Shown here in pieces: positions 1-61,463 of a stretch of DNA of 64,000 nucleotides; within the stretch, counting starts at the first letter, position 1; each line of letters starts with the position of its first letter. A model generated the notes under the pieces. It was given only the letters and a program-made list of their open reading frames with translations, searched no databases and was not told the origin of the DNA. This DNA is from Prorocentrum cordatum (Eukaryota), in the NCBI GenBank assembly GCA_963575745.1, contig CAUYUJ010000214.1:372001-436000 (forward strand), in the 5' to 3' direction. Made by a program: the position numbers and the translations under genes.

Positions 1-480
1 GCAGCAGCGTTACGGATGCAGTAGAACCGCTCCTTGTGGGTCCTGACTCTGTCGGGCGTCTGCGCAAGGTGGGAGGGGGTCCAAGCAACACTTCAAGATC
101 CTACTCGATCACGAACCGACGCCCGAATGGCCTTCCACAGGTCCGCATCCTCTTCCGCTGGAAATTACAACGACCTCGAGATAACGCTGGATAGAGAGGC
201 AAGTGATCAGTAACATACATAATGTCATGCGGCAGGAGTTCTAAAGCAAGCGGAACGGCCCTCAATTCAGCCCGAGGTACCGTCTGACGGCGACCAGACA
301 AGGGAAGGGACGCTCCCCAGATGGGCCTCCACTGAGAGTTACTGCTGCCACGCGACTGCAAGACCACTATGCCAGCCCCACAGCGCCTTCTCCTAGGATC
401 ACTCGAAAACTTTCCCACAGAGCCGTCTCTGAACACCGTGTCCTGGGCTCCAGGGGGGCTCTGAAGGTTACGGATCCCCG
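1..480 (-). pseudogene. RNase H domain remnant of a non-LTR retrotransposon (frameshifted, runs off the window edge)
   Basis: Minus-strand translation gives FRDGS (D-G-S motif), QTVPRAELRA and YVTDH. After a frame change it continues VAWTPSH...IRNAAA. These are RNase H1 motifs in the correct order. Confidence 0.75.
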
Positions 481-489
481 AACAAGAGC

Positions 490-700
490 CAGGAGGGAGA
501 GAGGGAGGGAGGGAGGGAGGGAGGGAGGGATGAGGAGGGGAGGAGGAGGAGGAGGTGGATGGAGGAGGAGGAGGAGGGGAGGAGGGGAGGAGGGGGAGGA
601 GGAGGGGGAGGAGGAGGAGGGGAGGGAGGAGGGAGGAGGGAGGAGGGAGGAGGGAGGAGGAGGAGGAGGAGGAGGAGGATGAGGAGGAGGAGGAGGAACG
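490..700. repeat. (GGA/GAG)n-type purine microsatellite
   Basis: Directly visible; explains the poly-G/E/R ORFs. Confidence 0.95.
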
Positions 701-750
701 AGCCAGGGAGGGAGGGGCTTCGTTCTTCGAGGCTCGGGCTTCGGGGTCTC

Positions 751-905
751 TGGATCTTCCTGTGCCTCCTGGGGGTTCGAAGATCGGGGCTCGAGGATCG
801 GGGCTCGAGACGTTTGGATCTTCCTGTGCCTCCTGGGGGTTCGAAGATCGGGGCCCGAGGATCGGGGTTCGAGACGTTTGGATCTTCCTGTGCCTCCTGG
901 GGGTT
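751..905. repeat. 64-bp tandem repeat, ~2.4 copies
   Basis: TGGATCTTCCTGTGCCTCCTGGGGGTTC recurs at 751, 815 and 879. Confidence 0.9.
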
Positions 906-1442
906 CCCTGGCGCCGCGGCCGAGTCCGGCTCGGAAAACTCTGGCCAGAGCGCGCCCCAGAAGAGGTTACCGAGACCTGGGCGTCACAGTTTCTCCCGAA
1001 AGCAGCCGGTCTATGAGGGTCTCACAGGGCCTTCTTCTGCTGTGTTGGGGCCGTCTTGGGGGCCTTTGGGGCCGTCGTGGAGCGACCTTGAAGGCTTCGT
1101 GGGCAGGCTTGGAGGGTCTCCTGGGGACCTTGTTGGGGGCCTTTGTTGGGGAGGGGCCGTGATCCGGAATCGGTGGGGCGCCGTGGTCTGCCGTGGTCTC
1201 CCGTGGTCTGCCGTTGTTTCCAGTTGTCGACCTGATCACGCTCTGGATGTCTCCGAGCATGCCCCGCTCTCCGCGCCGCGGTGTCAAGCTGTTCAGAGGG
1301 TCTTCGGCCGCAGGGGTGTCGTTCATGTCGCAGCGGGCGTTTTGGCCCGGCTCCGGGGGCCCCGGGACTAGGGCAGAACGGTCTGGCGGGAAGAGATGCC
1401 GCAGAAAGGCAAGGGCCAGGGCTCCAGTCGTGATTCGTCGCG

Positions 1443-4400
1443 GTGTTGCAATCGCTGCTCGGCTTGGCCGGAGGAGGGTGTTCAGATCCCCGGCGATGTG
1501 TTTTGTCAACCGTCGGTCGGCCCTCGGGGGCCGTTCTACGCGTCCTCGGATACAATCCAATGTGGGCATCAGGCGACAGACTGGCGGAGATACTGAGTGA
1601 ATCTCGAAATTATGACCTCGTTTTATTGGCAGGCACTCATGTAGGCGACAGATTACGTGGAGCACAGGTTTTGCAGCGTCGGCTTGATGGGCGCATGGTG
1701 TTCGAAGTACCTCACTCTCCTGCTCCTTTTAGCAATCGTAGTTGTGGGGTACTGATCGCCCTTGGTCCTCGCTATGGTGTCAGGGAAGTGCATCAGGTAT
1801 GGGGTAGTCCAGAGGGGGCAGCAGGGAGAGCGATGGCATTGAGATTAAAGCACAGCACCATGGACGTCTGCGCAATTAGCCTGTATTTCCCCCCCAAGCC
1901 AGTCAAGAACAACCAGAAACCTTCCTACTTTGGAACAGTTAAGGTGTTGTGTGAATGGCTGGACAGACTACTGAGTTCTCTCCCTACACGCTGTGTTCCT
2001 GTACTTTATAGTGATATCAACGATGGTCTGGGGGAGGAGTGGAGGGATGGAAGGTGGCAACGTGTTACTACTAACGTCGTGGGGGCCCCGACCCGTGAGC
2101 GCCTCGTGGGAGGGGCAGGGCATCGGCTTCGACAGATCCTTGAGAAGCATCACATGATGGCTGCGAATGCGCGCACGCATGTGGAGCACACCTTTTTCGG
2201 GGAGAAGGGCACATCCAGTCGCATCGACTACCTATGTGTCCCCATGGGTATGGCTGGACTCTTGCACGCTTGTAATCCCTTGAGGGGCCTGGGCGCGAAG
2301 TGGCAGCCAGTGCGCGGTGCTGCGCCGAGAGATCATCTACCCATCAATCTGAGCATGATCATGAACAAGGGAGGCCCTGTGCTTCCCCAGGAGGAGAGGA
2401 CGAGGTGGGACCAGGACAGGATGATGGAGGCGTTACGTACGGGTAAAGGGAGGTGGGCTTTCCTGGAGACGGTGGCGGAGGAAATGAGGAGTATCCAGCC
2501 TATTTACCAGAGGGATTGGGCGTCTCCAGATACGATTTTTGAAACTTTGGAGCAATGCATTGTTTCTGCTGGAAAAAAGCATTTCTTGGGAAGGGCACCT
2601 GTTCGGGAGGGCTACAGAGAAGACTGCGAACGCCGTCGGGAGTTACTTCGTCGTCGGGTTTCTCTACGAGGCAGTAAGTGCGAGGCCACAGAGTCGGAGG
2701 CCCATGAGATTGACCTCGAACTCCGCTCTCTTTCCCACCAGCTACAGCTCGACCGTCGTCGAGCCTTGCGCCGCCATCGTGACCGCTTGATGACAGAGGC
2801 GTCTGAGTGTTGGGAGCGTCGGCGTACAGCCGAAGCGATGCGTGCATCGAGGAGGGCGGCCCGTTGTCGTTACGGACCCAAGAAGCGGGACGCCCGACTC
2901 GCAGGTTGTACGTTACCTTCTGCAGACGAATGGATGAGAGTCTGGCGAGAACCAGGGGCGCAGGGAGGGATGTTGGTGGAGGAAGTGGATTGGGATCAGT
3001 TGCGGGCTTCTCGGGAGGAAGAGTCTTATGCTTATGAGTCGGAGGATCCTGAATTGACGGCAATCGTGAAGGAGGATGTGAAGGCCCTTCGTAGGTACTT
3101 CTGTTTTGCCCCCAAAAGAAAGCAAGTACCCGAACATACAGCACCAGTAGAATTATGGCACATGTTATTGTTTCCGAAGTGGAGGGTCCAGAATCGTGCA
3201 CTAGGATTAGGAGCAGGAGATGAAGCACCCAAAGTTGAGACTTTCTGGTGGATGCTACATGTTGGATTGCGTAAGATTCGTCTTCATCAGTTGGCCCCCC
3301 TCTACTGGCACCGCAGTCAAGGAGCTGCATTGGTAAAGAACCACCAGGCTGGACCCCTAGGACGCCGAGTAGTGCATGTGCTAGCTGCAATCGGCAAAGG
3401 ATGGTTTGCTAAACGATTACGCCCTTCCCCAACTACCTCGGACCATGGATTTGTGACCGGCCGTCGGCGTGAAAACGCTGTTATGATATCACTAAATACA
3501 TCATGGCGCCTCCGTGCCGCACAGAGGACACATGCAGTCTGCTTGAAGGACATGAGCAACGCATTTGGCAGCAGCAGCTTCGAGTCTATGAAAATCTCTG
3601 TCGCTCTACATGCGTCTGACCCCGACGTCGACCTGTGCGAACAGCGTTTCTTGGATTCGACGATCTTGCTCCCGACGAATACAGGAGGAGTACTAGTTAA
3701 ACCACGTCAGGGAGGTACAATGGGCGATCCTTTTATAGTATCGATGTTCGTTTCGACCTTTAAGAGACCAGTGATGAATTGGGAATATGACTTGCTTCAG
3801 TGGGATCCTACTTATCGTGATCTGAAGGCTAGCTGGGGGGAGTTACAGTCAGACCTCTCTCTCCTCAAGTACGCCGACGACATTAACAAAATTGTGCTAG
3901 CAGATCTGGACAGTACCCTTGGAGAATTTCTAGACAAAATTAAGCGCGTGGATGTCTCTCTAAATTCAAAGTTACAACCCTTCGGGTACGGCCAGAATAT
4001 GTCCAAGCAGGAGTTTCTGTTTCACTTCAGTGCGAGTGCACATTCGTGTAAGCAGTATTTGCGTGACCATCCCCAGTGTCTGGAGGGCCGTGTGCGAGAC
4101 GACGCACGTTACTTAGGACCCCGCATCGTACTCAGGGACAGTGCAGCAAGCGAGGTGGGTCGTCGTCTGGCTTCGTCTCGTGCCTCTTTTCACAGTTTGG
4201 GGGGAATATGGTCCCTGGACCTGCCGTACCGATGGAAAAGAGTCTTGTTTATTGGATTTGCTCAGAACTCTATCTTGAGTGGCATGGAGTCGTGGGTCCT
4301 CAGGGGTCACGACTACGACAGGTTGGATCGAGGACTGGCAGCTCTAGGCCGAATTGCGATGCAGGGAAAGGCTTCGACAGCATCGACGGTGCAGGAGGGT

Positions 4401-6287
4401 GATCACGTCAGATGTCTAACTACTCGGCAGGTCTTATCTTTCTGGAAGTTGGCCCCTAGTGCTGTCGAGCTCCGAGTTCGACGCGTTCGGTTATACCAGA
4501 GCTGGGCAAAGAAACCCAAGGAGAACGCACAAATATTATGTAGTTTGTTTGGGAGCACTTTGATGGACAATCACCGACCCCAACTTCGATACGGCCAACC
4601 TACGAAATTTGCCTCACCCTGGGTATTACAAGTGAAACGGGATTTGGAGGAGGTGGCGAGGGCATTGGACAGCGAGGTGGTGGAGGAGGTGGCGAGGGAC
4701 CTTACCATTCTTAAGGATGAGGAGAGGAGTTCGGATTTCGTGGCACTCGACGTTACGGAGCTTCGGGCACGTATGTTCACGGTCAGCATCCCTCCCCCTG
4801 GGAATTGGAGCTCTGGAGGCGGTTTACAGGAAGAAGAGGAGGAGGAGGAGAAGGTGGAGCGCCCTTATGTTTGTGGTCTCACAACAGATGAGGGAGTATG
4901 TACGTCCGCCTTCACGACAAGAAGGGAGCTCATGAATCATCTCAGGCGGGTGCACCACCTGCGCAACCAGTGCTATGTCCTCACGCCTACAAATGTATGC
5001 ATCAATTGCAAGCAGGTCTTCGGGTGTAAAAGCACAGCGGCACGGCATTTGCAGGGATCATTGTCCAGGGGCCACTGTGTGACGAGGGGCCCGTCGAATC
5101 TGAGAGCCACCCCCGACATCCCGAACACGTTCGCCTGTTTGCTCTGTGACTTTATCGGATCAAATCTGCTGAGCCTGTGTGAGCACTTGTGCGGACACCT
5201 CCCCTTTCGGCTCCCACCGTATACAGGACAACCGACTTCTGTAGGTGATGCCACCAGCGGCCTCAAGCATGTCAGTCGAAGCTCCACAGATGCCTTCGTG
5301 GTTCAACGAGGGTATCAAGCGGAAGGCCGACGGGGAGGAGGAGGGGGAGCTAGAGGGCAAGGACAAGAAGGGCAAGGGGGGCAGCGGGGGCGGCAGCGGC
5401 AGCAGCAGCGGGTTGGAGAAGAAGGTCGACACCGTCATTCGTCTCGTGCTCACCAATTCACGCGAGATAGCCGATTTGGGCGCCAGCGTGTTCCTTCGTT
5501 ACCTGCTCGCGGTGTCTACCCCCCTCGTGGCCGCCATTCTCGCAGCAGGGAAAGATTACGACCGCAAGTCACAGGAGATGAAAGAAAAGGCAAAGGGGGG
5601 GGAGAAGGTGGACTTCAAGAATCGTCCCTCCCCTCACGTGTGTATACTCACGGCAGCCGTACACTACGGCGCGACCAAGGCAGTCCAGGAGGGCAATATG
5701 AAAGCAAGGGACGAGAAGAACAAGGAGTTAATGAACCAGTTTTGGACAGAGAGGTTCGTGAATCTCGACTGGAGGGAGATCGGCAGGGCATGTGGGCACT
5801 TTCGCATCAAGACTCACCGCAAGGAGGAGGGGGCAGTGCAGACGTGCACGCTGTATATGCAATTCCACACGCGGGATCCGATCGCAGACGTCCTTTGCGG
5901 GTTGATGGAGGAGTTGGTGAAAGTGGAGGGGGGACTCTTCATGGTGGGAGCAGCGCCTCGGGGCCCCTTCGAGCGCGAGCTGTCCAAACAAGTAGGAGTG
6001 AGCAGCAAGTGAGGGCCTTTGCGACCAGCGTCAGATATCAGCAGCTTTTAGACAGAGGTTTGATAGTTGCGCCAGCTGCACAGCAGGTAATACAGACGTA
6101 TGCGCATGAGAATCTCCCCACTGTTCCAGTCGTAGTTTTACCCCAGCCGAAGAGCATGGGAAGAGGGAGGGGTGGGTCTCGGGGTGGGGGTCGTGGTCAG
6201 GCGTCGTCGGTTGGGAGGGGGGAAGGAGTGAGCAGCGGAGCGACGGAGCGTGAGGGCGCCCGCGCGCCCGCCTCCCTCCCGCCGTGA
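1443..6287 (+). CDS. LINE pol: APE/EEP endonuclease + reverse transcriptase + C-terminal C2H2-type zinc fingers (true start uncertain; the part after ~5240 is low complexity)
   Basis: EEP motifs: GYNP, DLVLLAGTH, LYSDIND, SRIDYL, RDHLPI. RT motifs: KDMSNAFGS, QGGTMGDP, KYADD (3870-3881), RYLG. Cys/His clusters: CGL..VCTSAF..MNHLRRVH, CINC..ARH, CLLC..EHLCGH. Confidence 0.93.
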   Translation: MLQSLLGLAGGGCSDPRRCVLSTVGRPSGAVLRVLGYNPMWASGDRLAEILSESRNYDLVLLAGTHVGDRLRGAQVLQRRLDGRMVFEVPHSPAPFSNRSCGVLIALGPRYGVREVHQVWGSPEGAAGRAMALRLKHSTMDVCAISLYFPPKPVKNNQKPSYFGTVKVLCEWLDRLLSSLPTRCVPVLYSDINDGLGEEWRDGRWQRVTTNVVGAPTRERLVGGAGHRLRQILEKHHMMAANARTHVEHTFFGEKGTSSRIDYLCVPMGMAGLLHACNPLRGLGAKWQPVRGAAPRDHLPINLSMIMNKGGPVLPQEERTRWDQDRMMEALRTGKGRWAFLETVAEEMRSIQPIYQRDWASPDTIFETLEQCIVSAGKKHFLGRAPVREGYREDCERRRELLRRRVSLRGSKCEATESEAHEIDLELRSLSHQLQLDRRRALRRHRDRLMTEASECWERRRTAEAMRASRRAARCRYGPKKRDARLAGCTLPSADEWMRVWREPGAQGGMLVEEVDWDQLRASREEESYAYESEDPELTAIVKEDVKALRRYFCFAPKRKQVPEHTAPVELWHMLLFPKWRVQNRALGLGAGDEAPKVETFWWMLHVGLRKIRLHQLAPLYWHRSQGAALVKNHQAGPLGRRVVHVLAAIGKGWFAKRLRPSPTTSDHGFVTGRRRENAVMISLNTSWRLRAAQRTHAVCLKDMSNAFGSSSFESMKISVALHASDPDVDLCEQRFLDSTILLPTNTGGVLVKPRQGGTMGDPFIVSMFVSTFKRPVMNWEYDLLQWDPTYRDLKASWGELQSDLSLLKYADDINKIVLADLDSTLGEFLDKIKRVDVSLNSKLQPFGYGQNMSKQEFLFHFSASAHSCKQYLRDHPQCLEGRVRDDARYLGPRIVLRDSAASEVGRRLASSRASFHSLGGIWSLDLPYRWKRVLFIGFAQNSILSGMESWVLRGHDYDRLDRGLAALGRIAMQGKASTASTVQEGDHVRCLTTRQVLSFWKLAPSAVELRVRRVRLYQSWAKKPKENAQILCSLFGSTLMDNHRPQLRYGQPTKFASPWVLQVKRDLEEVARALDSEVVEEVARDLTILKDEERSSDFVALDVTELRARMFTVSIPPPGNWSSGGGLQEEEEEEEKVERPYVCGLTTDEGVCTSAFTTRRELMNHLRRVHHLRNQCYVLTPTNVCINCKQVFGCKSTAARHLQGSLSRGHCVTRGPSNLRATPDIPNTFACLLCDFIGSNLLSLCEHLCGHLPFRLPPYTGQPTSVGDATSGLKHVSRSSTDAFVVQRGYQAEGRRGGGGGARGQGQEGQGGQRGRQRQQQRVGEEGRHRHSSRAHQFTRDSRFGRQRVPSLPARGVYPPRGRHSRSRERLRPQVTGDERKGKGGGEGGLQESSLPSRVYTHGSRTLRRDQGSPGGQYESKGREEQGVNEPVLDREVRESRLEGDRQGMWALSHQDSPQGGGGSADVHAVYAIPHAGSDRRRPLRVDGGVGESGGGTLHGGSSASGPLRARAVQTSRSEQQVRAFATSVRYQQLLDRGLIVAPAAQQVIQTYAHENLPTVPVVVLPQPKSMGRGRGGSRGGGRGQASSVGRGEGVSSGATEREGARAPASLPP
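5269..6012 (+). CDS. Second LINE-associated ORF (~247 aa), downstream of and overlapping pol in the +1 frame; function unknown
   Basis: Protein-like composition: charged KRKADGEEEG/KGKGG head, amphipathic helices (KKVDTVIRLVLTNSREIADL), RPSPH, terminal GAAPRGPFERELSK. The overlapping pol frame over this span is R/G-rich and unstructured-looking. Confidence 0.65.
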   Translation: MSVEAPQMPSWFNEGIKRKADGEEEGELEGKDKKGKGGSGGGSGSSSGLEKKVDTVIRLVLTNSREIADLGASVFLRYLLAVSTPLVAAILAAGKDYDRKSQEMKEKAKGGEKVDFKNRPSPHVCILTAAVHYGATKAVQEGNMKARDEKNKELMNQFWTERFVNLDWREIGRACGHFRIKTHRKEEGAVQTCTLYMQFHTRDPIADVLCGLMEELVKVEGGLFMVGAAPRGPFERELSKQVGVSSK

Positions 6288-6519
6288 GAGAGTGGTTTGG
6301 AGTCCGCGGAGTTCCACACAGGACCTCGCGCCGTGCGTGCCCGCGCCTCGAGCCCTCTGCGTGGGGGCCAAACGGCTGCGGGCCGGCCAGTGCTGCCTAG
6401 CGCAGAGTGCAGCACTTGGCCAATCGTTGCAAGGAAGAGGTTTTGCAAAGCCTTTCTCAGAATCCTTTAGGAGGCACTCTGGAGCGAATTTTTGTAAGTA
6501 TTCTGGCTTCTCTAAGCGA

Positions 6520-6717
6520 TCTCCTCCTCCTCCTCCTCTCCTCCTCTCCCCCCTCCTCCTCTCCCCCTCCTCCTCCTCCTCCTCCTCTCTCCCTCCTCCT
6601 CTCCTCTCTCCTCTCCTCCTCTCTCCTCCTCTCTCCTCCTCTCTCCTCCTCCTCTCCTCCTCTCTCCTCTCTCCTCCTCCTCCTCCTCCTCCTCCTCCTC
6701 CTCCTCCTCCTCCTCCT
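6520..6717. repeat. (CCT)n microsatellite at the LINE 3' end
   Basis: Directly visible. Confidence 0.95.
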
Positions 6718-7327
6718 TGGGGTGGAGGGGGGGCGTCCAGGAAGAGGAGGATCCCTGGGCTTCCTCGTGGAGGCCAGGCTTTGCCGGGGACGCTTTCGCA
6801 AACCCGACGATCACGAGTGCGTGCGTCAATTCGACGCAGCGGTGTCCTTTGGATGTGGATGCGTTGTCTGTGAACTGACAGCCCTCTTAGTCGAGCGACA
6901 GTGGGGAGGTGGGGGAGGAAGAGCAGGAGCAGCAAGAGCAGGAGGAGCAGGAGGGGATTGAGAGAGGGAGAGGCAGAGGGAGAAACAGCTGGAGCAGGAG
7001 GAGGAGGAGGAGGAGGAGGAGGAGGAGGAGGAGGGTTGGTCACTTGTGTAGCAGAGCGTGGCCGGAGCAGGAGAAGATATCCTTGCCGGTTGTGCCGTCC
7101 CAGTCCGCGCTGGCCAAGGAGACGGGGGCCAAACCAACCGCGCATGGCATGCGCTTTGCCGTACGTGCCAGAGGCCACTGTTATCCCTCCGGGCTCTCTC
7201 GACCGCCGCACTCCATCCTCCCTCCCTACCTCCCCTCCCTCCCGCTCTGCTCGTCGCTCGTTCCCTCCATCTCCTCCCCCTCCCTTCTCGTCCACCCCCG
7301 CCCCGTCGTCTTCGTCCTCCTGATCAA

Positions 7328-7404
<77 letters not shown>

Positions 7405-8388
7405 GCGTCGTCATCCCTCATCCCTTCCCCCCCCCGGCGGTCCCGCGGCGCGCGGGTCGCCAGGTGCGCCCAGGAATATAATGGCAGGGAGCTGCATGCA
7501 TACCACATCGGTCGTTGCACGCAGATATTTTTGCGGTCCCAGGTCCAGATCTACTGCAAGGGCCTTCCCACTTCAATCACCGACCTCTTTTTCATATGTC
7601 CTCTTCTTCTTCTTTTTTTTCTTCTTCTTCTTCTTCTTCTTCAGGGGGCGGGCGGAAGCCCAATCTACAGTCAACCATGATAGTAAGGATTGGACAACTT
7701 TCCAAGGCTACCCTTGCATCCTTGCCCCGTCGGCATTCCGCATCCTTCGGCATTCTGCTGCGCCCCGCACGGAAAGCGCCAACGTGGCGTTCCAAGGCCC
7801 CTGCATCCTTACCGCGCATCCTGCCTGTCCTGGCCGAGCCTACTTCCAGCGCCTTCCTGCTGCACGGCTCGGCCCGCTCCCTCCGACCGCAGGGCACCCC
7901 GAGCTCAGCCCTCCCGCCCGCCGCGCCGCCCGCGCCGGCCGGCGCGCCTGGTAAGGACCGCGCGCCTCCACCCAGGGCGCCCCTTGCGTCCCTGCCCCCG
8001 CGGCCCGTCCTCTGCCGTCACCGCGGGCCGAAGCCAGAACGGCTACGAGGAGGAGGAGGAGGAGGAGGAGGAGGAGGAGGAGGAGGAGGAGGAGGAGGAC
8101 GAGGAGGAGGAGGAGGAGGAGCAGGAGGAGGAGGACCCCTCCCCCTCCAACTTGTCGTGGTGGTGGTGGAAGACATGCCCAGCAGCAAAAGGGGCCTCGG
8201 GTCCGCGGAGGTCCCTGACGCCCGTCGCCGCCCGCGCGCCCCGAAGCCGGGGAGGGAAGACGCGCACCCAGACCAGACAGTCGGCGCTCACCTGCACGGC
8301 TCACGGGCGTGTGCTGCACGGCCCGGCCCCGTTCGCGTCCCTCCCCGGGTGCGCTTGCCGCTTCGCTTGTCGGGGTGGTTCTTATGCC

Positions 8389-19729: not shown

Positions 19730-20435
19730 GAATTAAAATGGGATTAATTCAAACCGGGCGAAGTAAAATTGGATGAATTTAAACCGGACGAAATATAACC
19801 GGAGGAATTTATACCGGGCGAATTCAAGCTGAATTTAAACCGGACGAATTAGAACCGGATGAATTTCATCTGGGCGAGTTAAAACCGGATGAATTTAAAC
19901 CGAACGAATGAAAACCATATGAATTGAATGTGATCGATTAAAACCGGATGTTTTTTCTTGGCGAATTTAAACCGGACGTGTTTATAAACGGAATGGACCA
20001 AATAGACAACGCAAGCCACACAGTGGCACGCAGAGAACATTAGAACCGGATGATTTTAAATTAGACGGATTAAAACCGGATGAATTTAAATTGGGGGGAA
20101 TTCAAACCGGATGGATTTAAATTTGGGCGAATTTGAACCGGATGCATTTGAACCGGATGAAATGAAACGGATGACATTAAATTGATGAGATTGAACGGAT
20201 GCAGTTTAACTGATGTAATTGAATTCGAGTGAAACAACGGTGAATCCGTTTTGCGCCCCCTCATCCTCCTTCTATTCCCTTTCTGATTGTCCCTCCTTCT
20301 TTTTCATCCCTCCACAATCAAACAGTATGGGTGCTATTCTCTTTCCTCCATCGAAGTTTTGCGTAATGTCGATCTCCCACCCCGCGAAGTGTTTTTTACA
20401 CAGACGATGTCAACAACTGTTGTTTTACTTTTTTT
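19730..20435 (+). repeat. 15-bp satellite array with embedded unique spacer, followed by a dispersed repeat
   Basis: A homologous block lies at 24475-25090 with the shared spacer GAATGGA.CAAATAGACA....GCCACACAGTGGC. 20250-20435 matches 17950-18135. Confidence 0.8.
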
Positions 20436-20848
20436 TGATGCTGCAGACCAGACGAATTGGGGAAAAAACGATTCTTGTTCGCTTAAGAGTTTGCCTTCAC
20501 AGCCTGACCACACCAGGCACAAGTAGCGGTTGCGGCGGAACCTGTGGATTACCTTACAGGGTCAACGCCAACATCAAAGGCCTCAAATCGAGGGAAGGCC
20601 GGTACAGCCAAAGAGACGGCAACGAGCGGCAGCACGCAACGAAAGTGTCACGAAGTATGGTCCGCAAGTGCAGAAGGAGGAGGGAGGAGGACAGAAGGAA
20701 GGAGAGGAGGAGGAGGAGGAGGAGGAGGAGGAGGAGGAGGAGGAGGAGGGAGGAGGAGGAGCGAGGAGAGGAGGAGGAGGAGGAGGAGGAGGAGGAGAGG
20801 AGGAGGAGGAGGAGGAGGAGGGAGGAGGAGGGAGGAGGAGGGAGGAGG

Positions 20849-23800
20849 GCGTGGAATGCAAGCGACGTTCGAGTTGAGCTACCTTCCTTCGGCCTTCCAG
20901 AGGGAAGGATTCCAGTGACGGAGCGTGTAGCTCCAGAAGCTTTGCGGCACATCAGTTCCCGTTTTAAGAGACAGACATGTACCCCTGATGGGTTTCATCC
21001 AAGACATTACTCATTGTTATCAGATGGTGCGCTTCTTGCCCTTTCGTGGTTGTATCACTTGATCGATGTTCTGGGTCAGGGACCATCCAGGACTCAGCGA
21101 CTCATAGTATTTCTTATGAGTAAACCAGTGAAAGGGCGCCGACCTATTGGGCACTACTGTGGGTTTGCGAGGCTCCACGGCAAGACTCACAGAAATCCAT
21201 GTAGATCCTGGGAATCAAAAGTCGGGTTGGGCCCTGAGTTCTCCATGGGACAGGGCCGCAGCGCCCTCGACACGGTGTGGCGTCAGTCAGTGACGGCAGA
21301 GTTATATGCGGGACAGAAGATCCACTACGGGGCCCTCATGTGGGATTTGCTGCAATTCTACGAGCACATTTGCCATGAAGAGCTCCTCCAGCAAAGTATC
21401 TTGTCCGAGTTCCCGTTGTACATACTTTTATATACTATGTCGACGTATCGTTGGAAGAGAATTCTCCTTCTTGATGGGGCATATGGTGAACCCCTGTTCC
21501 CTTGCCGAGGGATCGTAGCGGGGTCCACGTCAGCCACCTACGAGGCCAAGTCGTTCCTCCTCCCCACCATTGTTGCACACAGGGGGCACGATTGTACGGG
21601 TTTGAGCTTACATGTCGATGATCTCTCTGTGCACGCATGGCATCAAAATGTAGATGATTGCGTTCAGCAATTACGAGACCTTGCGACCAGCTTGGCCTTT
21701 ATCATTTCGCAGAGATTGCGGGTGCCCCTAGCAGAGAAGAAGATGTTTGCCACTGCCAACAGCTCGACTCTCTTGGCCATGATCAAAGACAAGCTAGGGA
21801 CACTCGCAGGACAGGGTACTGTTGCACCAGCCAACCTTGGAGTGGATTTCGCAGGTGGGAAGCACCAGCTGCGGCCGTTCGCCCGCCTTGTCATGAAGAA
21901 GAGGGCCAAGAAATTCAAGTTTCGGATCTCTAAGCTCTCGGGTCTCAAGGTATCCACGAAGCTCAAGAAAAGGCTCTTCAAGGCTGGGATCCTCCCTACT
22001 GTCTCCTATGGGCTCGACATCCAGGGTGTGTCTCCAAGGGAACTTCTTTCTATTCGAAGGTCTGCTGGGCGAGTCTGTGGGATCAGTAAGAAAGGTTGCA
22101 ATTTGGACCTCCTGTGGGCCATCGAGGGCAAAGGCGACCCCATCATGCTGGCAGGCGGTTGTGTACGGAGATACTGCTGGGAATGGTGGCACAGTTCTGA
22201 AGTGAGTAGGCACGGGAGCCCTAGGCATCAAGATGCGCTATCTCCAGGTGTTTTAAGCAAAGCGTTTCACTCGAGTGTCGAAGTCTTCCAAGGGACTCGG
22301 GGAAAACCCTGGTTTTTTCGGACCCGTGGGCCGATGTCGGCCATGCTTCTCTGGCTCGAAGCTGGAGGATGGACCTGGGAGGGTCCCGCTGTGTTTCTGG
22401 TTCGGTCTGGACGGCGCTGGACTTTGACTGAATCCCCCCCGTCTCAGATTGGGGAAAAGTTTGTGGCCGATCTGGCCCAAGTGTTCCTGGACAAGTTTTT
22501 TACCAAGGGTCTTGAGATCCACTCGCATCCTGGCAACCAGGACTTGATTGATCGTGGGGTCTGGCTTCCCCTCTTGCAGCGCGTTGCCAGGAATTTAAGT
22601 AGTCAAGCGAAGCACTTGTATCTTCAGGTATTATCAGGTGCTTTACCGACTGGTGAGTCCCTCAGGAGATGGGGCTACGAAGTTGACGCCTCTTGTCCGA
22701 TGTGTGGAGCTGGACAGGACACCCTGAAGCACAGGTGTTGGGAATGTCAGCACCCTGATATTGTACGTCGTCGAGCTGAGCATTTCGGACCCGATCTTGT
22801 TCAGCAGGCTTTGGAATGTGATGAAAATATTCTCATTTTTTCCAGGCTGTGGCCGGCGTATCCTGATGTGCCCCCGCCAAGCAAGGACTGGTGTTTGAAG
22901 TTTTTCGGGGCCCAGGGCGAGCCTGTCGATGCGTTTGTGTTCGGGCCCGAAGCTGGCCTTTTCACGGACGGCTCCTGTTTCCACAACACTCGGCCCGAAA
23001 TCGCCAAGGCTGGGGTCTCTGTTGTCGAGATGGAAGACGACGGGACCTGCAGGAGGGGGGTCTATAGCCCTCTTCCCAGTGAATATGCCCAGACCCCTGG
23101 GGATGCAGAGCATGCTGCCCTGGCCTTAGCTGTGCTGAGGCAAGAACGTGCCGTCGAACCTCCCCCCAAGGCCATCTCCGTGGTCTGTTCGGCGTTGTTT
23201 GTGGGTGTGAGGTCTCCTGGCAGGGCCCTGGGGGGAGGTTCTCGTAGCAGCTTTTTCTGGAGGTCCATAGCTAGAGACATCGGAACTAGCAGTTGGATCT
23301 CTCTTCGCAAGGTAGCCGCCCACCGCAAGCTCCAAGACGCGGTGGACGAAAGCGATGCGCGGGACATTCAAGGATCTACGGCCGCCGACCACTGGGCGAA
23401 GTTAGGGGCTCGGGCCCACGACATTTCGCCTCAGGAGTTAGCCGACTTCGAAAATGCGGAGGGCGAGTATGGATCTTTAGTCGTAGGTGTCCTCGACATT
23501 TTATGTGGGTTCCCACCCTGTGAAGCCCAATTTGGGAAGCTGAAGCGGCCCCCTCGGGCCAAGAAGCCTCCCCGTTTAAAATCTGACCACGTACCAGTTT
23601 GGCACGGGAATATCCAGCGGTGTAAACGCTGTTTGCGTCAGGTGTCCTCGAAGACCCAGACCCCTTGCGGTGCCCTGAACCCTGCTCTGTCGGACCTCCT
23701 CTGTGGAGGCGGGGGCTCGGGGCATCACCTGCATTGGGCCCGAGTCGAAGAGAGTGATATGCCTGTTATTTATTGCGTCTCTTGTGGAGGATTTGCCACC

Positions 23801-24022
23801 AGCCGTGGCAGCGCTCTCCTCAGCAAATCGTGTGAGCCCCCTCGCAAGAGCTCGGAGCGTTCCAAGCTGTTACGGGGGCTCCACCCTGGGACCAAACACA
23901 GACTGGGCCAGTCGTTTCCCCTTTCCTCCCTTCCCTTTTTTCCTCTTCCTCCCCCCCTGCCCGCCCCTGCCTCGTCCTCCACGGCTGGTCCCAGTTCTGT
24001 TGGTCCCCCCTTTTCGTTGTAG
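20849..24022 (+). CDS. Reverse transcriptase-RNase H polyprotein, N-terminally truncated (the track start at 20219 is read-through of repeats)
   Basis: TPDGF, KPVKGRRPIG, WDLLQFYEHI, RGIVAGS, LHVDD (21611-21622), NLGVD. Zinc motif CPMCGAGQDTLKHRCWEC. RNase H: LFTDGS, QTPGDAEHAA, KVAAH, AADHWAK. Terminal CKRC and YCVSCG..C..HP. Confidence 0.9.
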   Translation, partial: AWNASDVRVELPSFGLPEGRIPVTERVAPEALRHISSRFKRQTCTPDGFHPRHYSLLSDGALLALSWLYHLIDVLGQGPSRTQRLIVFLMSKPVKGRRPIGHYCGFARLHGKTHRNPCRSWESKVGLGPEFSMGQGRSALDTVWRQSVTAELYAGQKIHYGALMWDLLQFYEHICHEELLQQSILSEFPLYILLYTMSTYRWKRILLLDGAYGEPLFPCRGIVAGSTSATYEAKSFLLPTIVAHRGHDCTGLSLHVDDLSVHAWHQNVDDCVQQLRDLATSLAFIISQRLRVPLAEKKMFATANSSTLLAMIKDKLGTLAGQGTVAPANLGVDFAGGKHQLRPFARLVMKKRAKKFKFRISKLSGLKVSTKLKKRLFKAGILPTVSYGLDIQGVSPRELLSIRRSAGRVCGISKKGCNLDLLWAIEGKGDPIMLAGGCVRRYCWEWWHSSEVSRHGSPRHQDALSPGVLSKAFHSSVEVFQGTRGKPWFFRTRGPMSAMLLWLEAGGWTWEGPAVFLVRSGRRWTLTESPPSQIGEKFVADLAQVFLDKFFTKGLEIHSHPGNQDLIDRGVWLPLLQRVARNLSSQAKHLYLQVLSGALPTGESLRRWGYEVDASCPMCGAGQDTLKHRCWECQHPDIVRRRAEHFGPDLVQQALECDENILIFSRLWPAYPDVPPPSKDWCLKFFGAQGEPVDAFVFGPEAGLFTDGSCFHNTRPEIAKAGVSVVEMEDDGTCRRGVYSPLPSEYAQTPGDAEHAALALAVLRQERAVEPPPKAISVVCSALFVGVRSPGRALGGGSRSSFFWRSIARDIGTSSWISLRKVAAHRKLQDAVDESDARDIQGSTAADHWAKLGARAHDISPQELADFENAEGEYGSLVVGVLDILCGFPPCEAQFGKLKRPPRAKKPPRLKSDHVPVWHGNIQRCKRCLRQVSSKTQTPCGALNPALSDLLCGGGGSGHHLHWARVEESDMPVIYCVSCGGFATSRGSALLSKSCEPPRKSSERSKLLRGLHPGTKHRLGQSFPLSSLPFFPLPPPLPAPASSSTAGPSSVGPPFSL

Positions 24023-27360: not shown

Positions 27361-30194
27361 GGTCGCCCCCCCCCCCAGCACCCCCAAACCACCAAAACCA
27401 CAAAATCTTCACTGATCGTTTCTCCTCGTCGCTCTCCTCCTCAAACCACAAAATCTTCACTGATCGTTTCTCCTCGTCGCTCTCCTCCTCCTCCTCCTCC
27501 TCCTCCTCTCCTCCTCGTCCTCCTCCTCCTCCTCCTCCTCCTCCTCCTCCTCCTCCTCCTCCTCCTCCTCCTCCTCTGGGGGACGCCCGAGACAGGCCCG
27601 ACTGAAGGTTTCCATCCGCTGCGCCTCGCCGAGGGCGCCCCGGGTGGCGCCAGCAGCGTCCCGCCACGGCCGCTCGAGGCCCGCCAGCCAGGGCCCGCGG
27701 GCCACGAGGAGGGCCCCCGGCTCCTGCGGGAGGCATCGGGCCTCCCACCTCCTCAATTCTCCTCCTCCTCCTCCTCCCCCCCCCTCCCCCCTCCTCTCCT
27801 CCTCCTCCTCCCTCCTCTCCCTCCTCCTCCTCCTCCTCCTCCTCCTCCTCCTCCTCCTCCTCCTCCTCCTCCTCCCCCTCCCCCTCCCCCTCCTCCTCGT
27901 CCTCCTGGGGTCCGAGCACGGTCCCGACAGCTTGCTTGGCGTGTCGCGTCGTCGGTTCCGGTCCACCACGCCTCGGCGCGACACGCTCGCCGCGTCCCAG
28001 TCCCCAAGCGTCAGCTTCCCGACCTTCTCCCAGCCGCCCGCCACGCGGAGCGGAGCGACATGCTATCGCATGCAGGGCACAGCGCGTCGCTGGGGCCTCC
28101 TCCCCCCTCCTCCCCCTCCTCCCCCTCTCCTCCTCCTCCTCCTCCTCCTCCTCCTCCTCCTCCTCCTCCTCCTCCTCCCCCTCCCCCTCCTCCTCCTCCT
28201 CCTCCTCCTCCTCCTCCTCCTCCTCCTCCTCCTCCTCCCTTCCTCCTCCACAATTACTCAATATGAATACTACTCTCCCTCTTCCCCTGATGACGTCTTG
28301 GGTCCCCCCCCCCGCGTACTGTTTTTTTACACACAGGTTTCCCTGGAGTTGGGTTTTCGTTTGCATTTTTGTCCAACATGCTGTTCTCGCTGAAGCGCCG
28401 GCCTCATTTTCGGGCCCCGCTCGTTCCGAATCATGCTCCCGCTGCAGCGCTGACATCATTTCCGCCAGCGCCCGGGCTGCACGCCCGAGCCGTCGCCCGG
28501 GCCGGCGCTCGAGCCGGGTCCGGAGCCGGTTCCGGCCGGCGCCGGAAAATCGAGTTCCGAGGCGGCGCCGAAAAAAGGCCATTCCAACACAATTGTTTTT
28601 GAAAATGCTGAGTTTCTGCTTCTGGCGCCCGGGAAGCCTTCCCCGGAGTTAGGTTTTCGCCGGCATTTTTTCCCAAAATGCTGCTCTCGCTGAGGCGCCG
28701 GCCTCATTTTCGGGCCCCGCTCGTTCCGAATCGTGCTCTCGCTGCAGCGCTGGCCTCATTTCCGTGCTTCCGCTCGTTCCGACTCGTGACGAGTCGAAAC
28801 GAGCGGCAGCGCTGGCGTCATTTCCCGTGCCATGCCACGGCATGCAATGCAATGCTCGGTTGATACTACGCTTCGCGGTGCTCTTCTACGCCATACCATG
28901 CCGTGCTCTACAATGCATCGCGTACCCTTTCGGGATCATCGCCCTGCTTGACATCCGACTGTGCGAGTAGAGAGGGGATCTGCGCCATGGTAAGGGATGG
29001 GAGGGATGGGTAGGATGTCAGATATGACGCGAGCGCACCTAGCTTGTCCTCCCCCCTCCCCCTCCCCCTCCTCCTCCTCCTCCTCCTCCTCCTCCTCCTC
29101 CTCCTCCTCCCCCTCCCCTCCTCCTCCGCCGCCGCGACACGCGTAGCAAAAGTTCCCGACCGCAGATGGGATCGGATGATCGCACCGCGCTGCCGATGCC
29201 CTGCGATGTGGCGCAATGTGGCTCCCCTTTTTCTCGACGTCGACGGTGGCGGAGCATCGCCAACGTCGCCAATGCACAGGGGATGCATCGGCGAGCTTCC
29301 CCCTGGAGAGTGTGTCCGATCGCTCCGGGTCCCTCGGGGTTGGCAGTCCGACCACGGTCCCATGGTTTGCTTGTTGCTTTGCGGCCAGCACCGCGCTATC
29401 CCCCTCGTCTCGGGTGTTGCTAGAAGTGCTCCTGGCCCAAGGTGCCACCAGGATTTCCAAGGAGGTCCCCACGGCCTCCAGAGCACCCCTCACGAGGCCA
29501 AGAGGGCCCCAGGAGCTTCAACATTAGGCGAAAAGCTGTGGGCACATTGAGCCAGGGGCACTTTGAGCAACCCCCGATCGTCTGGTGCGCCCAGATCTCG
29601 TCAACAATCGGATAGGATTCCGAAAAATATTTGGGTGACAGGCCAGTGGAAGGCGGGCTCGCAGGAGGTTCGGGCTCCCGCAAAGGGTGTGTGTGCGCCG
29701 GGGTATGTGTGAGTTCGATCGGTTTTTGCACCGAACCACCCCAGACAGATGCCCCCCAGCCGCCCGCAGCTCCCGATAGTTTCGGATAGGTGGGGCATGT
29801 GGGGGGCATCTGTTTTCAGCAGTTCGGCGCACCAACGGATCGAACTCATGCCCCCGTCAGGGTCCCCCCCGCCCGTTTTGGCCGATCCCGACAGGTGAAG
29901 GATCAGATTGCGAAGAATATTGGAGACCAGACGGTGGAGCATAGAACCGAGATCTTCCGGGCGCAGATTCAAGCGTATTATGCCAAGTGGGTGCCAATTG
30001 GCTCCAACATACGCTATCTTTCGGTGGCACATCCTGGGAGCCTGGCATGCCCTCTGAGTCTCCGTCTTTAGCGTTGGCTAGCGTCGGGGAGTCGAAGATA
30101 TAGCGCCGATGTGGCGTCGGTTAGCGTCGAACTAGCGTCGATTAGCGTCGACTCGGGTTGATTAGCGTCGAGTCGCAAGAGCCGACAAGATGGT

Positions 30195-30995
30195 ATGGGA
30201 GGCTCCCATGAGATGCCACCGAACTGTCTAACAGATGAGGATATGGACGACTCGGTTCGCAAGATCTCCATGTTACTGGCAGCGAAAGGCATCACAGATG
30301 TGGATAAAGCCTATTTCAATCTCCGTCCAGGTGCATTCCGAGCTGATGTTTGGAGGCTCATGCAGCTATGGGCTGAAGGCGGTGTATACTTGGACGCAAA
30401 CATAAACCTCACGCATGAACTAACCTATTGGATCGATTTCTCCAACGATGAGCTAGTAGTCGTTAGGGACACAGGCGTGAAAGATGGCATTTGGAATGCG
30501 ATGATGGCGGCTGAGCAAGGTAACCAGTACCTTCAGAATGCACTTGCGGACATCACTAGCCATATCCTCACACATTATTACGGGACAAATCCATTGGCAA
30601 TTACAGGTCCGATTGCGTTGGGCTCATCATTCATGAAAGATCACAGATACCCCAATGGCTTACGCCGCGAACTTGAATGGAAAGGCGGAAAAGTTAACAA
30701 CACAAAGACGGCAGAGGTTGTGGCGCAAAAAGATGAAAAGTTGCACGACAAGGACCCGAGCAAGCACTACGATCCGATGTGGCGCCACCACCAGGTGTAC
30801 TGCGACCAGAAGGGGCCTACACCCGACAACGGCAAGTGCCCAGAGGGATCCTGGAAGAACGCGGACGGGAGCGTCAAGTACGTCGACCATGTGGTTCATC
30901 ACAGCACCGTCGCGAGCCATGCGGGACATCAGGCCGCAAGCCACGGCTACGAGACCCGACGGCGCAGATTCACCCGCCACATGACGACACGATGA
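30195..30995 (+). CDS. Glycosyltransferase family 32-like (DxD sugar-binding, OCH1/SUR1-like) segment; N-terminus missing or in upstream exons
   Basis: Motifs TDEDM, AFRADVWRLMQLWAEGGVYLDAN, IWNAMMAA and AITGPIALG match the GT32 pattern D..R...L...GG.Y.D.D/N...TGP. Confidence 0.8.
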   Translation: MGGSHEMPPNCLTDEDMDDSVRKISMLLAAKGITDVDKAYFNLRPGAFRADVWRLMQLWAEGGVYLDANINLTHELTYWIDFSNDELVVVRDTGVKDGIWNAMMAAEQGNQYLQNALADITSHILTHYYGTNPLAITGPIALGSSFMKDHRYPNGLRRELEWKGGKVNNTKTAEVVAQKDEKLHDKDPSKHYDPMWRHHQVYCDQKGPTPDNGKCPEGSWKNADGSVKYVDHVVHHSTVASHAGHQAASHGYETRRRRFTRHMTTR

Positions 30996-34203: not shown

Positions 34204-34213
34204 CCCCTGCCGG

Positions 34214-43369: not shown

Positions 43370-43446
43370 GAGGAGCCGTTCCGGTATATGGCCCTGCGCT
43401 GCCGCGGGGCAGCGCGAGTCTTCGCATCATCGCTGGGTCTTGAGCC

Positions 43447-61423: not shown

Positions 61424-61463
<40 letters not shown>

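Follow-up and report, generated by a model that had tools for sequence, protein, structure and literature searches.

A putative LINE-like element of Prorocentrum cordatum with a separate protein-coding gene 3' of its polymerase

A 64,000-nucleotide stretch of the Prorocentrum cordatum genome (hereafter the window) carries, directly behind the zinc fingers of a LINE-like polymerase (pol), an open reading frame at 5245-6012 (the 3' ORF) which is a real protein-coding gene of a large unnamed family. The locus is probably a LINE-like element without an ORF1, in which an accessory gene with a translation start of its own lies 3' of pol. The accessory protein of LINEs, where present, is encoded in front of pol, and the making of both proteins and their assembly on the element's own RNA are central to LINE copying. 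If the proposed layout is true, an ORF1-less lineage whose conserved accessory gene lies behind pol and has its own start would be a new way of achieving this, and would pose a concrete question of expression in an organism whose mRNAs receive their caps through spliced-leader trans-splicing. A large 'uncharacterised' family of dinoflagellates and marine metagenomes, whose confidently predicted fold matches nothing solved, would also gain a name and a context, and many dinoflagellate 'genes' of ~250 aa would be flagged as likely 3' remnants of retroelements.

The polymerase and its surroundings

The core of the pol frame was located by an open-frame scan at 1434..5243 on the forward strand, on which all features described here lie. 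It has 1270 codons and comprises an endonuclease part, a reverse transcriptase (RT) part and three C-terminal C2H2-like zinc fingers. The EEP/APE-like endonuclease region (1536..2345) was recognised by eye from LRVLGYNPM, YSDINDG, SRIDYL and RDHLPI, so that the motifs N-P-M, SDIND, SRIDY and RDH are present; the usual Glu of the 'QET' motif was not seen, AGT standing in its place in DLVLLAGTH. We take these motifs to be of the APE type by comparison with L1 endonuclease motifs, together with an ESM Atlas match and not with an HMM match. The RT motifs (3546..4127), namely KDMSNAF, QGGTMGDPF, KYADDI (3867-3884, with the YADD core) and YLGPRI (with YLG), were also read by eye and follow each other in the expected order; they are presumably those of non-LTR RTs, an assignment made by comparison with motifs of that class and supported by the ESM Atlas match. 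The three fingers at the pol end (4866..5198) were found as C-x2-4-C...H-x3-8-H patterns at 4866-4958, 4998-5078 and 5130-5198, and were matched weakly by Pfam zf-C2H2 (E=0.15).

When pol residues 30-1275 were used for a feature search of the ESM Atlas, the top cluster scored 0.96 with 195 features in common. Its members carry RVT_1 (100%), zf-C2H2 (52%) and Exo_endo_phos (37%), the last being present in 37-86% of members across the clusters matched, and the ten best family-bearing matches all belong to the same family or clan as the best one, which carries RVT_1. Pfam gave neither an RVT_1 nor an endonuclease match for the whole pol, and RVT_1 was also absent for its pieces and for the sibling models. 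PDB sequence searches returned no match for the RT or the endonuclease, a search for pol relatives among proteins of 889-2830 aa returned none, and hhalign gave no match between pol and a second LINE-like ORF in the window; the single-sequence AF2 model of pol was unusable (pLDDT 34.8). From the motifs and the language-model match, rather than from an HMM, we infer that pol belongs to a divergent APE-type LINE without ORF1.

The earlier note on this DNA had stated that no ORF1 is evident upstream of pol. Within the window this statement holds, because positions 1-1433 contain only low-complexity ORFs and simple repeats and because no pol-frame ATG precedes the endonuclease-like start in the window's copy, the first Met being at 1560. 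Simple repeats flank the element region, around which no element boundaries, A-rich tail, target-site duplication or flanking long repeats were found. A second copy of the element was not detected in the 64-kb window by blastn and tblastn self-comparison or by the family HMM over six frames. Rfam matches on 1-8000 were confined to a simple repeat, with nothing relevant among them.

The 3' ORF and its protein family

The 3' ORF (5245..6012, open-frame scan) has 255 codons, which are read in the +1 frame with respect to pol. Its frame opens at 5245 after a TAG at 5242-5244, is closed by the TGA at 6010-6012, and includes ATG codons at 5248, 5269 and 5290. The opening lies ~15 codons beyond the last C2H2-like finger, whose end is at 5198, with neither a pol-frame stop nor an untranslated spacer in between. 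The pol frame itself continues over the whole 3' ORF and 91 codons past it (5244..6287), and is thus without a stop from 1434 to the TGA at 6285-6287, a total of 1617 codons. An ORF of ~250 aa in the +1 frame right after the last zinc finger, and a pol frame free of stops to 6287, had both been described previously, and both descriptions were confirmed.

Relatives of the 3' ORF product are numerous. An exhaustive HMMER search returned 121 cluster representatives (50%-cluster level) at E<=1e-3, 35 at E<=1e-10 and 7 at E<=1e-30, and within the window the family HMM matched only the place of the 3' ORF. Most relatives are stand-alone models of ~230-270 aa with a Met few residues ahead of a P-x-W-F motif. 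Sequences beginning with Met make up 113 of the 121, and among the 45 members bearing the N-terminal motif, the motif lies within 20 residues of the N-terminus in 30 and a Met is found at most 13 residues upstream of it in 39. Of the representatives, 30 were traced to their sources: Prorocentrum cordatum records account for 11 and metagenome or assembly records for 17, and the other 2 come as peptides from a single EukProt transcriptome, which contributes a third peptide to the cluster members. The transcriptome peptide P0008 is 96% identical to the 3' ORF product and has the same MSVEAP start; other close relatives, which are protein records, are P0011 (71% identity) and P0005 (60%). Codon usage also fits a gene in this frame, the codon-position GC agreeing with the ORF frame and GC3 being 0.76 in the ORF frame vs 0.56 in pol.

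Several searches gave nothing to add to the family. No siblings were found on viral and prokaryote genome contigs by locus scans, the ESM Atlas held no usable match for the 3' ORF, and a word-indexed search of proteins of near length gave no match, longer lengths yielding only P0003. The latter is the window's own gene model of 999 aa, which starts with the ATG at 5290 and leaves the ORF by a splice behind VKVE; the remainder of the model after this splice was regarded as spurious. In model P0004 the domain stands behind an unrelated stretch of 465 aa, and relative P0039 sits on an 11.6-kb metagenome contig. Two further similarities were rejected: an in-frame zinc-finger remnant in P0128 was unsupported (z=0.7), and the upstream ORF-frame read of P0126 against the sibling locus described below was weak (z=3.2) and came partly from the ORF's own N-terminus.

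Members of the family share a plan of ~250 aa, in which a short N-terminal peptide (P-x-W/F-hydrophobic...K/R) is joined by a disordered linker rich in Gly and Lys to a basic alpha/beta domain of ~200 aa. In the 3' ORF product the N-terminal peptide reads P-S-W-F...KRK, the linker is of the same disordered, Gly/Lys-rich kind, and the basic alpha/beta domain spans ~54-255. The AF2 model built from 43 sequences (pLDDT 87.2, pTM 0.76) is disordered at the N-terminus and ordered at 54-255. The net charge of the domain averages +4.7 over the 43 members, with a median pI of 9.1. Pfam assigned no family to the 3' ORF, and no Pfam family was common to more than one of the 43 members. A PDB profile search with the 3' ORF gave no match at E<=10, and Foldseek matched the domain model to nothing in PDB or BFVD at E<=0.001. 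The best result of a wide VIA-align search (Z 6.4 over ~56 residues) consisted only of helix hairpins, and no RRM or coiled-coil match to the predicted domain was obtained in the fold searches. Prediction of a homodimer of the domain scored 0.00, a value which carries no verdict. Structure prediction, one of the checks put forward in the earlier note, thus yielded a confident fold for which Pfam, PDB and BFVD offered no match. As judged by its sequence, the product appears to fall outside the known ORF1p families.

Inheritance and expression of the layout

The link between pol and the 3' ORF was followed in a sibling locus, L001, a metagenome contig of 1326 bases which was the single locus returned by an alignment-based scan. 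In L001 the pol zinc fingers are followed by the ORF in the +1 frame, and no pol-frame stop occurs up to the contig end. Between L001 and the window, 59 of 110 residues are identical in the zinc-finger region (54%) and 91 of 238 in the ORF (38%). The order from pol to ORF is therefore found in 2/2 DNA loci, a linkage which at the DNA level rests on these two loci, most family members being known as proteins only. Chimeric gene models with pol-like pieces provide five further representatives, and in 5/5 of them the pieces lie N-terminal of the ORF part. Since L001, at 38% ORF identity, has the identical +1 offset and an open pol frame, the pol-then-ORF layout appears to be inherited and not a private indel. 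The suggestion of an ORF1-like gene behind pol, made before these comparisons, can accordingly be divided: the position behind pol is borne out by the two loci and the five chimeras, and the likeness to ORF1 is not, the searches having given no similarity of the product to ORF1p types or known folds.

According to the reading we favour, the 3' ORF would be an integral second cistron of the element lineage, with its gene behind pol. Translation of its protein would begin at an AUG of its own, given the conserved Met adjoining the N-terminal motif, and would use an RNA distinct from the full-length pol message, either a processed or subgenomic RNA, which in a dinoflagellate could plausibly arise by spliced-leader trans-splicing near 5244, or alternatively the transcripts of 5'-truncated copies; the stand-alone models of the 3' ORF fit such truncated copies and do not prove them. 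A DinoSL-like match (GGCCTCAAG) just 5' of the ATG at 5269 was rejected as not significant, 13% of 30-base windows scoring equally, and a single good DinoSL relic was detected in the window, at a place away from the 3' ORF. Judged from charge and position alone, the protein may be a basic accessory which binds nucleic acid or the RNP, RNA binding being a candidate function. The pol frame would be open mainly by composition, through T-poor third positions, avoidance of T before purines and genome-wide avoidance of off-frame stops, and a pol made from full-length RNA would bear an Arg/Gly-rich tail of ~345 aa by default, whether selected or not.

A possible, if unlikely, alternative is nested dual coding, in which pol runs to 6287, selection keeps its frame open, and the whole ORF lies within pol in the +1 frame. 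Pol would then gain a linker rich in Arg and Gly as well as a small segment at its C-terminus (YQQLLDRGLIVAP... and an RGG-like run). Both frames are in fact open in 2/2 DNA loci. Synonymous-codon shuffles predicted 7.4 pol-frame stops in the window's copy (0 observed, P<1/5000) and 3.6 in L001 (0 observed), and the stop depletion of the former had P=0.024 when compared with other purine-start codon contexts. Third-position T was absent before stop-making codons in the two loci (0/79 and 0/75) vs 6/94 and 5/106 before other purine-start codons (pooled Fisher P=0.0017), and of the 247-codon windows in four control ORFs (n=2431) none was stop-free in the corresponding frame. The pol frame also remains open for the 91 codons past the ORF stop (P=0.044), where a more ordinary stretch (RAFATSVRYQQLLDRGLIVAP...) is followed by the RGG-like run; the codon-position composition of 6013-6150 resembles that of pol, and the sibling transcriptome peptide P0118, which reads the pol frame past the ORF stop, is locally similar there (SERFQQLVAR vs SVRYQQLLDR here).

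However, the control genes are depleted likewise. Three of them in the window have off-frame stop-context depletion ratios of 0.27-0.61, and the expected stops are therefore only 1.4-3.1 in the window's copy (P(0) ~0.05-0.25) and 1.0-2.2 in L001 (P(0) ~0.12-0.38). In a kinase-like control ORF 221 consecutive codons are free of stops, other ORFs of the window also show 0 stops vs 5.6-7 expected, and long ORFs in several frames are common, 9% of codons in the rest of the window lying in stop-free runs of at least 345 codons. Over the 3' ORF the pol-frame peptide is rich in Arg, Gly, Ser and Gln, and the abundance of Arg and Gly is accounted for by the codon positions of the ORF, of which the first is G-rich and the third C/G-rich. 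Moreover, the pol-frame peptide is conserved between the window and L001 no more than in 1000 synonymous shuffles (P=0.33 for score, 0.53 for identity), a comparison of one distant pair with low power. The open pol frame is thus only weakly beyond chance and is probably largely compositional, and the weight which the earlier note had put on it was too strong, much of the openness following from composition as in the control genes and the other ORFs of the window. The controls also teach that long open second frames arise easily in these GC-rich genomes and alone are no sign of dual coding.

A fuller form of the nested arrangement can be imagined, in which pol is read through the 255 ORF codons (-1 frame), giving an Arg/Gly-rich linker which selection keeps stop-free, and the nested gene with its new fold is expressed from a spliced-leader-capped subgenomic RNA starting at ~5245. 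We regard this as rather doubtful, and the same doubt attaches to its corollary that 6013-6287 would encode the end of pol, with a short conserved segment and a box of the RGG type.

It seems improbable that the 3' ORF is a multi-copy cellular gene in its own right, or belongs to a different kind of element, and is a mere neighbour of the LINE owing to 3' transduction, to capture or to a targeted insertion upstream of the gene. Such an origin would suit the prevalence of stand-alone relatives of ~250 aa among the 121, the domain arrangement of P0004 and the difference in GC3 between ORF and pol, and it would suit L001, whose ORF is intact and whose pol has an in-frame TGA, for which reason L001 may be a dead copy. 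On the other hand, in both loci no stop, untranslated region or tail separates the last finger from the ORF, and the ORF starts inside the pol frame. The two parts have diverged together between the loci, all five chimeric models run from pol to ORF, and 5'-truncated LINE copies would yield stand-alone models as well.

Programmed +1 ribosomal frameshifting between 5245 and ~5285, by which some ribosomes translating pol would make a pol-ORF fusion, is still less to be expected. The ORF frame does open exactly where the functional part of pol ends, no pol-frame stop intervenes, the +1 offset is equal in both loci, and relative P0031 reads as a fusion, a single polypeptide passing from the zinc-finger frame into the ORF frame. 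Nevertheless, no shift-prone heptamer, rare-codon site or stop-codon stall site is common to the two junctions (read by eye, n=2), and the ATGs directly ahead of the N-terminal motif, which a fusion would not need, are conserved. P0031 has lost the finger cysteines and for this reason was taken for a decayed copy whose fusion reflects an indel or an intron call. RNA folding of 6010-6300, a stretch apart from the junction, was unremarkable (z=-0.38). The frameshift fusion considered in the earlier note thus lost ground, and so did its other proposal, a single indel in a once-fused protein: that the domain was formerly the in-frame C-terminus of pol and was shifted by one mutation private to the window's copy is largely refuted and very improbable, the lack of a pol-frame stop before the ORF and the one-frame reading of P0031 being outweighed by the +1 offset, which a check of siblings proposed at the outset found kept in L001 as the one DNA sibling, by the conserved start codons of family proteins which stand alone, and by the MSVEAP start of the near-identical P0008.

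Comparison with known systems

The literature consulted, subscription journals and Repbase lying outside its scope, contained no LINE with a conserved gene 3' of pol and no mention of the 3' ORF family. Extra genes 3' of pol are familiar from LTR retrotransposons and retroviruses, in the form of ORF3 or env-like genes. In retroviruses the gene 3' of pol is expressed from a subgenomic (spliced) RNA. In hepadnaviruses the envelope gene is nested in the polymerase gene in another frame (P/S). The fuller nested arrangement would combine a hepadnavirus-like overlap with a retrovirus-like subgenomic message in a non-LTR element, a combination in which we place little confidence. The 3' ORF resembles ORF3 and env-like genes in position, although those belong to LTR elements. 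It has been noted that an ORF3 in this downstream position is not necessarily env (PMC5718144).

A second gene in another frame, inside or overlapping the RT gene, is a feature which the present locus shares with hepadnavirus P/S and with ORF2 and ORF3 of DIRS-1, which are overlapping genes of the polymerase region (PMC5006619). In hepadnaviruses selection on both frames is established, whereas here the pol-frame peptide is not conserved above shuffle.

With the L1Tc/ingi-type LINEs of trypanosomatids the element would share the lack of an ORF1 before pol, an AP-endonuclease-type N-terminus, the RT and the 3' C2H2 fingers. It has been reported that the nucleic-acid chaperone function of L1Tc is at the carboxy end and not at the amino end (PMC5814959, PMC2805920). 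L1Tc differs in having a single ORF whose chaperone is the C2H2 region, whereas here a separate gene of 255 codons follows in another frame. The RNase H domain, 2A peptide and Pr77/ribozyme of L1Tc were not seen here (Rfam on 1-8000). With bicistronic LINEs of the L1 type the element would have in common two cistrons, one for the polymerase and one for a small, basic, non-enzymatic candidate RNA-binding partner; it differs from them in that the gene order is inverted, the cistrons overlap without a spacer, and no ORF1p features were seen in the protein. For the accessory role proposed for the 3' ORF product, the analogy would be with ORF1p in L1 and with the C-terminal C2H2 domain in L1Tc.

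Layout of the element

The pol frame on the forward strand was found to be stop-free from 1434 to a TGA at 6285-6287 (1617 codons), with the polymerase-like part in the first 1270 codons. This part has an endonuclease-like N-terminus (1536-2345, +; motifs LRVLGYNPM, YSDINDG, SRIDYL and RDHLPI), reverse-transcriptase-like motifs (3546-4127, +; KDMSNAF, QGGTMGDPF, KYADDI and YLGPRI) and three C2H2-like fingers recognized by pattern (4866-5198, +). An ORF of 255 codons follows on the same strand, from 5245 to a TGA at 6010-6012, in the +1 frame relative to pol; it is preceded by a TAG at 5242-5244, and ATGs in its frame were located at 5248, 5269 and 5290. A scan for ORFs and repeats 5' of pol found nothing beyond simple repeats and low-complexity frames. 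Since the recomputed frames, the motifs and the upstream scan all agree with it, the earlier note was correct in describing an ORF behind the last finger that is overlapped throughout by an open pol frame. The pol of the window copy has no start codon, and this copy of the element may be inactive.

The motif order in pol, by eye, fits a LINE. Pfam gave no reverse transcriptase or endonuclease match to the whole pol, four pieces of it, a 266-residue reverse transcriptase piece or sibling models, the sole match to pol being zf-C2H2 (E=0.15). PDB sequence searches with pol had no match either, and a single-sequence AF2 model of pol had a pLDDT of 34.8. In an ESM Atlas feature search with pol residues 30-1275, the top cluster (score 0.96, 195 shared features) carried RVT_1 in 100% of its members, zf-C2H2 in 52% and Exo_endo_phos in 37%, and the best ten family-bearing matches all belonged to the same family or clan as the best, RVT_1-bearing one; according to the tool, about 1 in 100 shuffled proteins reaches a score of at least 0.95. 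Given the ESM Atlas match and the motif order, the element can be called LINE-like on good but not formal support. A second LINE-like ORF in the window (20219-24019, +; 1267 codons) matched zf-RVT in Pfam (E=1.1e-6) and has an HVDD motif and, by eye, an RNase H-like tail (TDGS...). The endonuclease part is absent from this ORF, which is thus probably 5'-truncated, and no similarity to pol (1434-5243) was found, including by hhalign.

Several repeats were observed around the element. Simple repeats lie on either side of it, (GGA)n at 492-697 upstream and (CTC)n at 6521-6717 downstream, which are roughly mutual complements, and a 64-base unit is present in 2.4 copies at 751-906. An exact 13-base direct repeat, AGGAGTGAGCAGC, occurs just 5' of the ORF stop (5994-6006, +) and again shortly before the open pol frame ends (6224-6236, +), and may be due to chance.

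Inheritance of the layout and the ORF family

The only sibling available as DNA was L001, a metagenome contig of 1326 bases, and the comparison therefore covers two junctions, those of the window and of L001. The fingers in the L001 pol frame have 59 of 110 residues identical to the window pol, and the L001 ORF, which opens in the +1 frame about 15 codons past the last His, has 91 of 238 residues identical; pol and ORF have diverged together. The +1 offset is equal in both loci, and at either junction pol passes into the ORF with no intervening stop, untranslated region or tail. An in-frame TGA is present in the finger region of the L001 pol (268-270), and the L001 ORF is intact. The equal offset, the joint divergence and the uninterrupted junctions argue against a chance neighbour or a 3' transduction, and against a private indel in a once-fused protein, which the earlier note had considered and for which it had proposed the check on sibling frame offset. 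The comparison indicates that the pol-to-ORF layout is inherited.

An exhaustive HMMER search with the ORF returned 121 cluster representatives at E<=1e-3, 35 of them at <=1e-10 and seven at <=1e-30; a word-indexed protein search found no relative of similar length. Most representatives were stand-alone proteins of 200-270 aa whose alignment to the query spans roughly residues 15-250; an initial Met was present in 113 of the 121. P0039 is encoded on an 11.6-kb metagenome contig and P0005 on a contig of 3.2 kb. Their N-terminus carries a P-x-W/F-hydrophobic motif followed by K/R and then a Gly/Lys-rich linker, and the domain ends with G-x-A-P-R-G-P-L-E-R-E. A Met was found at most 13 residues upstream of the N-terminal motif in 39 of 45 motif-bearing members, and the motif lay within 20 residues of the N-terminus in 30 of the 45; several chimeric models keep the motif-proximal Met although the model begins far upstream. 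Judged from these sequences, the ORF is a genuine gene and belongs to a large protein family that has no name. Pieces alignable to the window pol were present in five of the 121 representatives, all chimeric gene models (P0047, P0031, P0048, P0061 and P0086), and in all five they lay N-terminal of the ORF part. P0031 passes from the finger frame to the ORF frame in one polypeptide; because its finger cysteines are lost, it was interpreted, from the protein sequence only, as a decayed copy or the product of an intron call.

The 30 representatives whose sources were looked up comprised 11 from P. cordatum, 17 metagenome or assembly records and two EukProt peptides sharing one transcriptome; a third transcriptome peptide was found among cluster members. 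Among relatives with a named source, those closest to the ORF were P. cordatum records; for this species a multi-omics data set that includes a proteome is described (PMC10666404). P0008, one of the transcriptome peptides, shares 96% identity with the window ORF over 73 residues and has the same MSVEAP start; therefore, a near-identical copy of the ORF exists in RNA-derived data. The transcriptome concerned, EP00959, is labelled as a green alga and holds P0008, P0118 and P0127, which share at least 90% identity with family members from P. cordatum or 96% with the window ORF, and this suggests that the data set contains dinoflagellate sequences. The assembly's own gene model P0003 (999 aa) begins at the ATG at 5290, exits the ORF after VKVE and then runs through low-complexity sequence far downstream; it is probably mis-spliced. 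In the P. cordatum record P0004, the ORF domain follows an unrelated 465-residue N-terminal part with a P-loop-like motif (GEPNFGKT) and no Pfam match, so pol is not the context of every family member; P0004 may represent another element or a merged gene model.

The structure prediction that the earlier note had suggested for the ORF product was carried out with AlphaFold2 on 43 sequences (pLDDT 87.2, pTM 0.76) and gave a disordered stretch (residues 1-53) and an alpha/beta domain (54-255). This domain is basic, with a net charge averaging +4.7 and a median pI of 9.1 across 43 members, and its most conserved residues are mostly Gly and Pro, together with Arg187, Arg244, Glu243, Tyr105 and Trp167. 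Charge and conserved residues suggest a role in binding rather than in catalysis. No Pfam family was found for the ORF, nor one common to the 43 members; a PDB profile search with the family had no match, Foldseek of the model against PDB and BFVD gave none at E<=0.001, and the ESM Atlas gave no usable match. VIA-align reached at best a Z of 6.4, over about 56 residues of a helix hairpin.

The open pol frame and expression of the ORF

Against shuffles of synonymous codons, the openness of the pol frame over the ORF looks exceptional, with no stops where 7.4 were expected in the window (P<1/5000) and 3.6 in L001 (P=0.01). In the window ORF, the frequency of third-position T varied strongly with the next codon: it was 20 of 80 where that codon starts with a pyrimidine, six of 94 where it starts with a purine but cannot make a stop, and none of 79 where it is an AA/AG/GA codon (Fisher P=0.024 against the six of 94). 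In L001 the last two classes had five of 106 and none of 75 (P=0.066), and the depletion in both loci pooled gave P=0.0017. Third-position T was likewise rarer ahead of AA/AG/GA codons than ahead of other codons with an initial purine in pol itself (1560-5243; 49/297 vs 104/384, ratio 0.61), in the L1-like ORF at 20219-24019 (40/306 vs 113/380, ratio 0.44) and in the kinase-like ORF at 43444-45372 (8/140 vs 42/198, ratio 0.27). These three control genes of one window point to a general avoidance of -1 frame stops in the P. cordatum genome. With the control ratios, our own arithmetic gives 1.4-3.1 expected stops in the window and 1.0-2.2 in L001, and a probability of zero stops of about 0.05-0.25 and 0.12-0.38, respectively. 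In the rest of the window outside the element, stop-free runs of at least 345 codons account for 9% of codons, and other ORFs of the window have no off-frame stops where 5.6-7 are expected.

It is unlikely that selection holds the pol frame open over the ORF, a reading under which the ORF would be nested inside pol. In its favour, no stop-free stretch was found in the equivalent frame among 2431 windows of 247 codons taken from four control ORFs (longest run 221 codons), the pol frame stays open for 91 codons beyond the ORF stop (P=0.044) with a pol-like codon-position pattern at 6013-6150, and P0118, a transcriptome peptide of a sibling, reads the pol frame beyond the ORF stop with local similarity. 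Against it stand the control genes, which are depleted in the same direction, and the pol-frame peptide, whose likeness between the window and L001 was not above synonymous shuffles (P=0.33 and 0.53) and whose Arg/Gly richness follows from the codon make-up of the ORF. The control depletion, the long open runs elsewhere and the unconserved peptide show that the synonymous-shuffle null is too generous, and the openness of the pol frame is probably mostly compositional.

Long ORFs with two or three frames open simultaneously were also seen at 60683-62957 (+) and elsewhere; there, 60792-62957 (722 codons) overlaps 61477-62949 (491 codons; no off-frame stops vs 7 expected), and neither ORF had a Pfam match. 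Several ORFs overlap on both strands at 33300-35100. A glycosyltransferase DXD region (30162-30992, +; Pfam E=1.4e-5) and the weak protein-kinase match at 43444-45372 (+; Pfam E=0.0023) are likely cellular gene fragments.

Since a pol-frame stop is absent at the junction, every ribosome that translates the full-length RNA extends pol by a tail of about 345 residues. The programmed frameshift fusion raised in the earlier note, by which a +1 shift would join pol to the ORF, is less likely, because the two junctions share no shift site and the conserved ATGs of the ORF would be needless for a fusion. The ORF has a conserved start region of its own, and its protein would be made from its own AUG, on an RNA other than the full-length pol message. 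The obvious candidate in a dinoflagellate would be a spliced-leader trans-spliced RNA; immediately 5' of 5245 there is a pyrimidine-rich tract with a terminal TAG, although AG dinucleotides are common. Transcripts of 5'-truncated copies could provide a second route. From its position, its charge and its lack of catalytic-looking residues, the protein is proposed to bind the RNA or RNP of the element. The host is a dinoflagellate: elsewhere in the window, a dinoflagellate spliced-leader relic with one mismatch (34276-34296, -; none expected by chance) is the mark of a retroposed gene.

Comparison with known elements

The earlier note had proposed an unusual LINE gene order; a gene behind pol stands in the window and in L001. 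The element was rated as LINE-like, with an unusual gene order and a putative new accessory protein family. The literature covered on LINE architecture described no LINE whose pol is followed by a conserved gene, and it did not mention the ORF protein family; most subscription journals and Repbase lay outside this scope, so this absence is not proof that the finding is unpublished. L1 also has two cistrons, but in the opposite order, and its ORF1p is the proposed counterpart of the 3' ORF protein in RNA or RNP binding. Overlapping pol genes are present in hepadnaviruses. They are also described for DIRS-1 (PMC5006619), and ORF3/env genes behind pol for LTR elements (PMC5718144). These layouts are the closest known ones together with that of L1Tc/ingi, which have no ORF1 and carry 3' C2H2 fingers as the present element does; in L1Tc, the role proposed here for the 3' ORF protein belongs to the C-terminal C2H2 region, located at the carboxy terminus of the element's one ORF (PMC5814959; PMC2805920).
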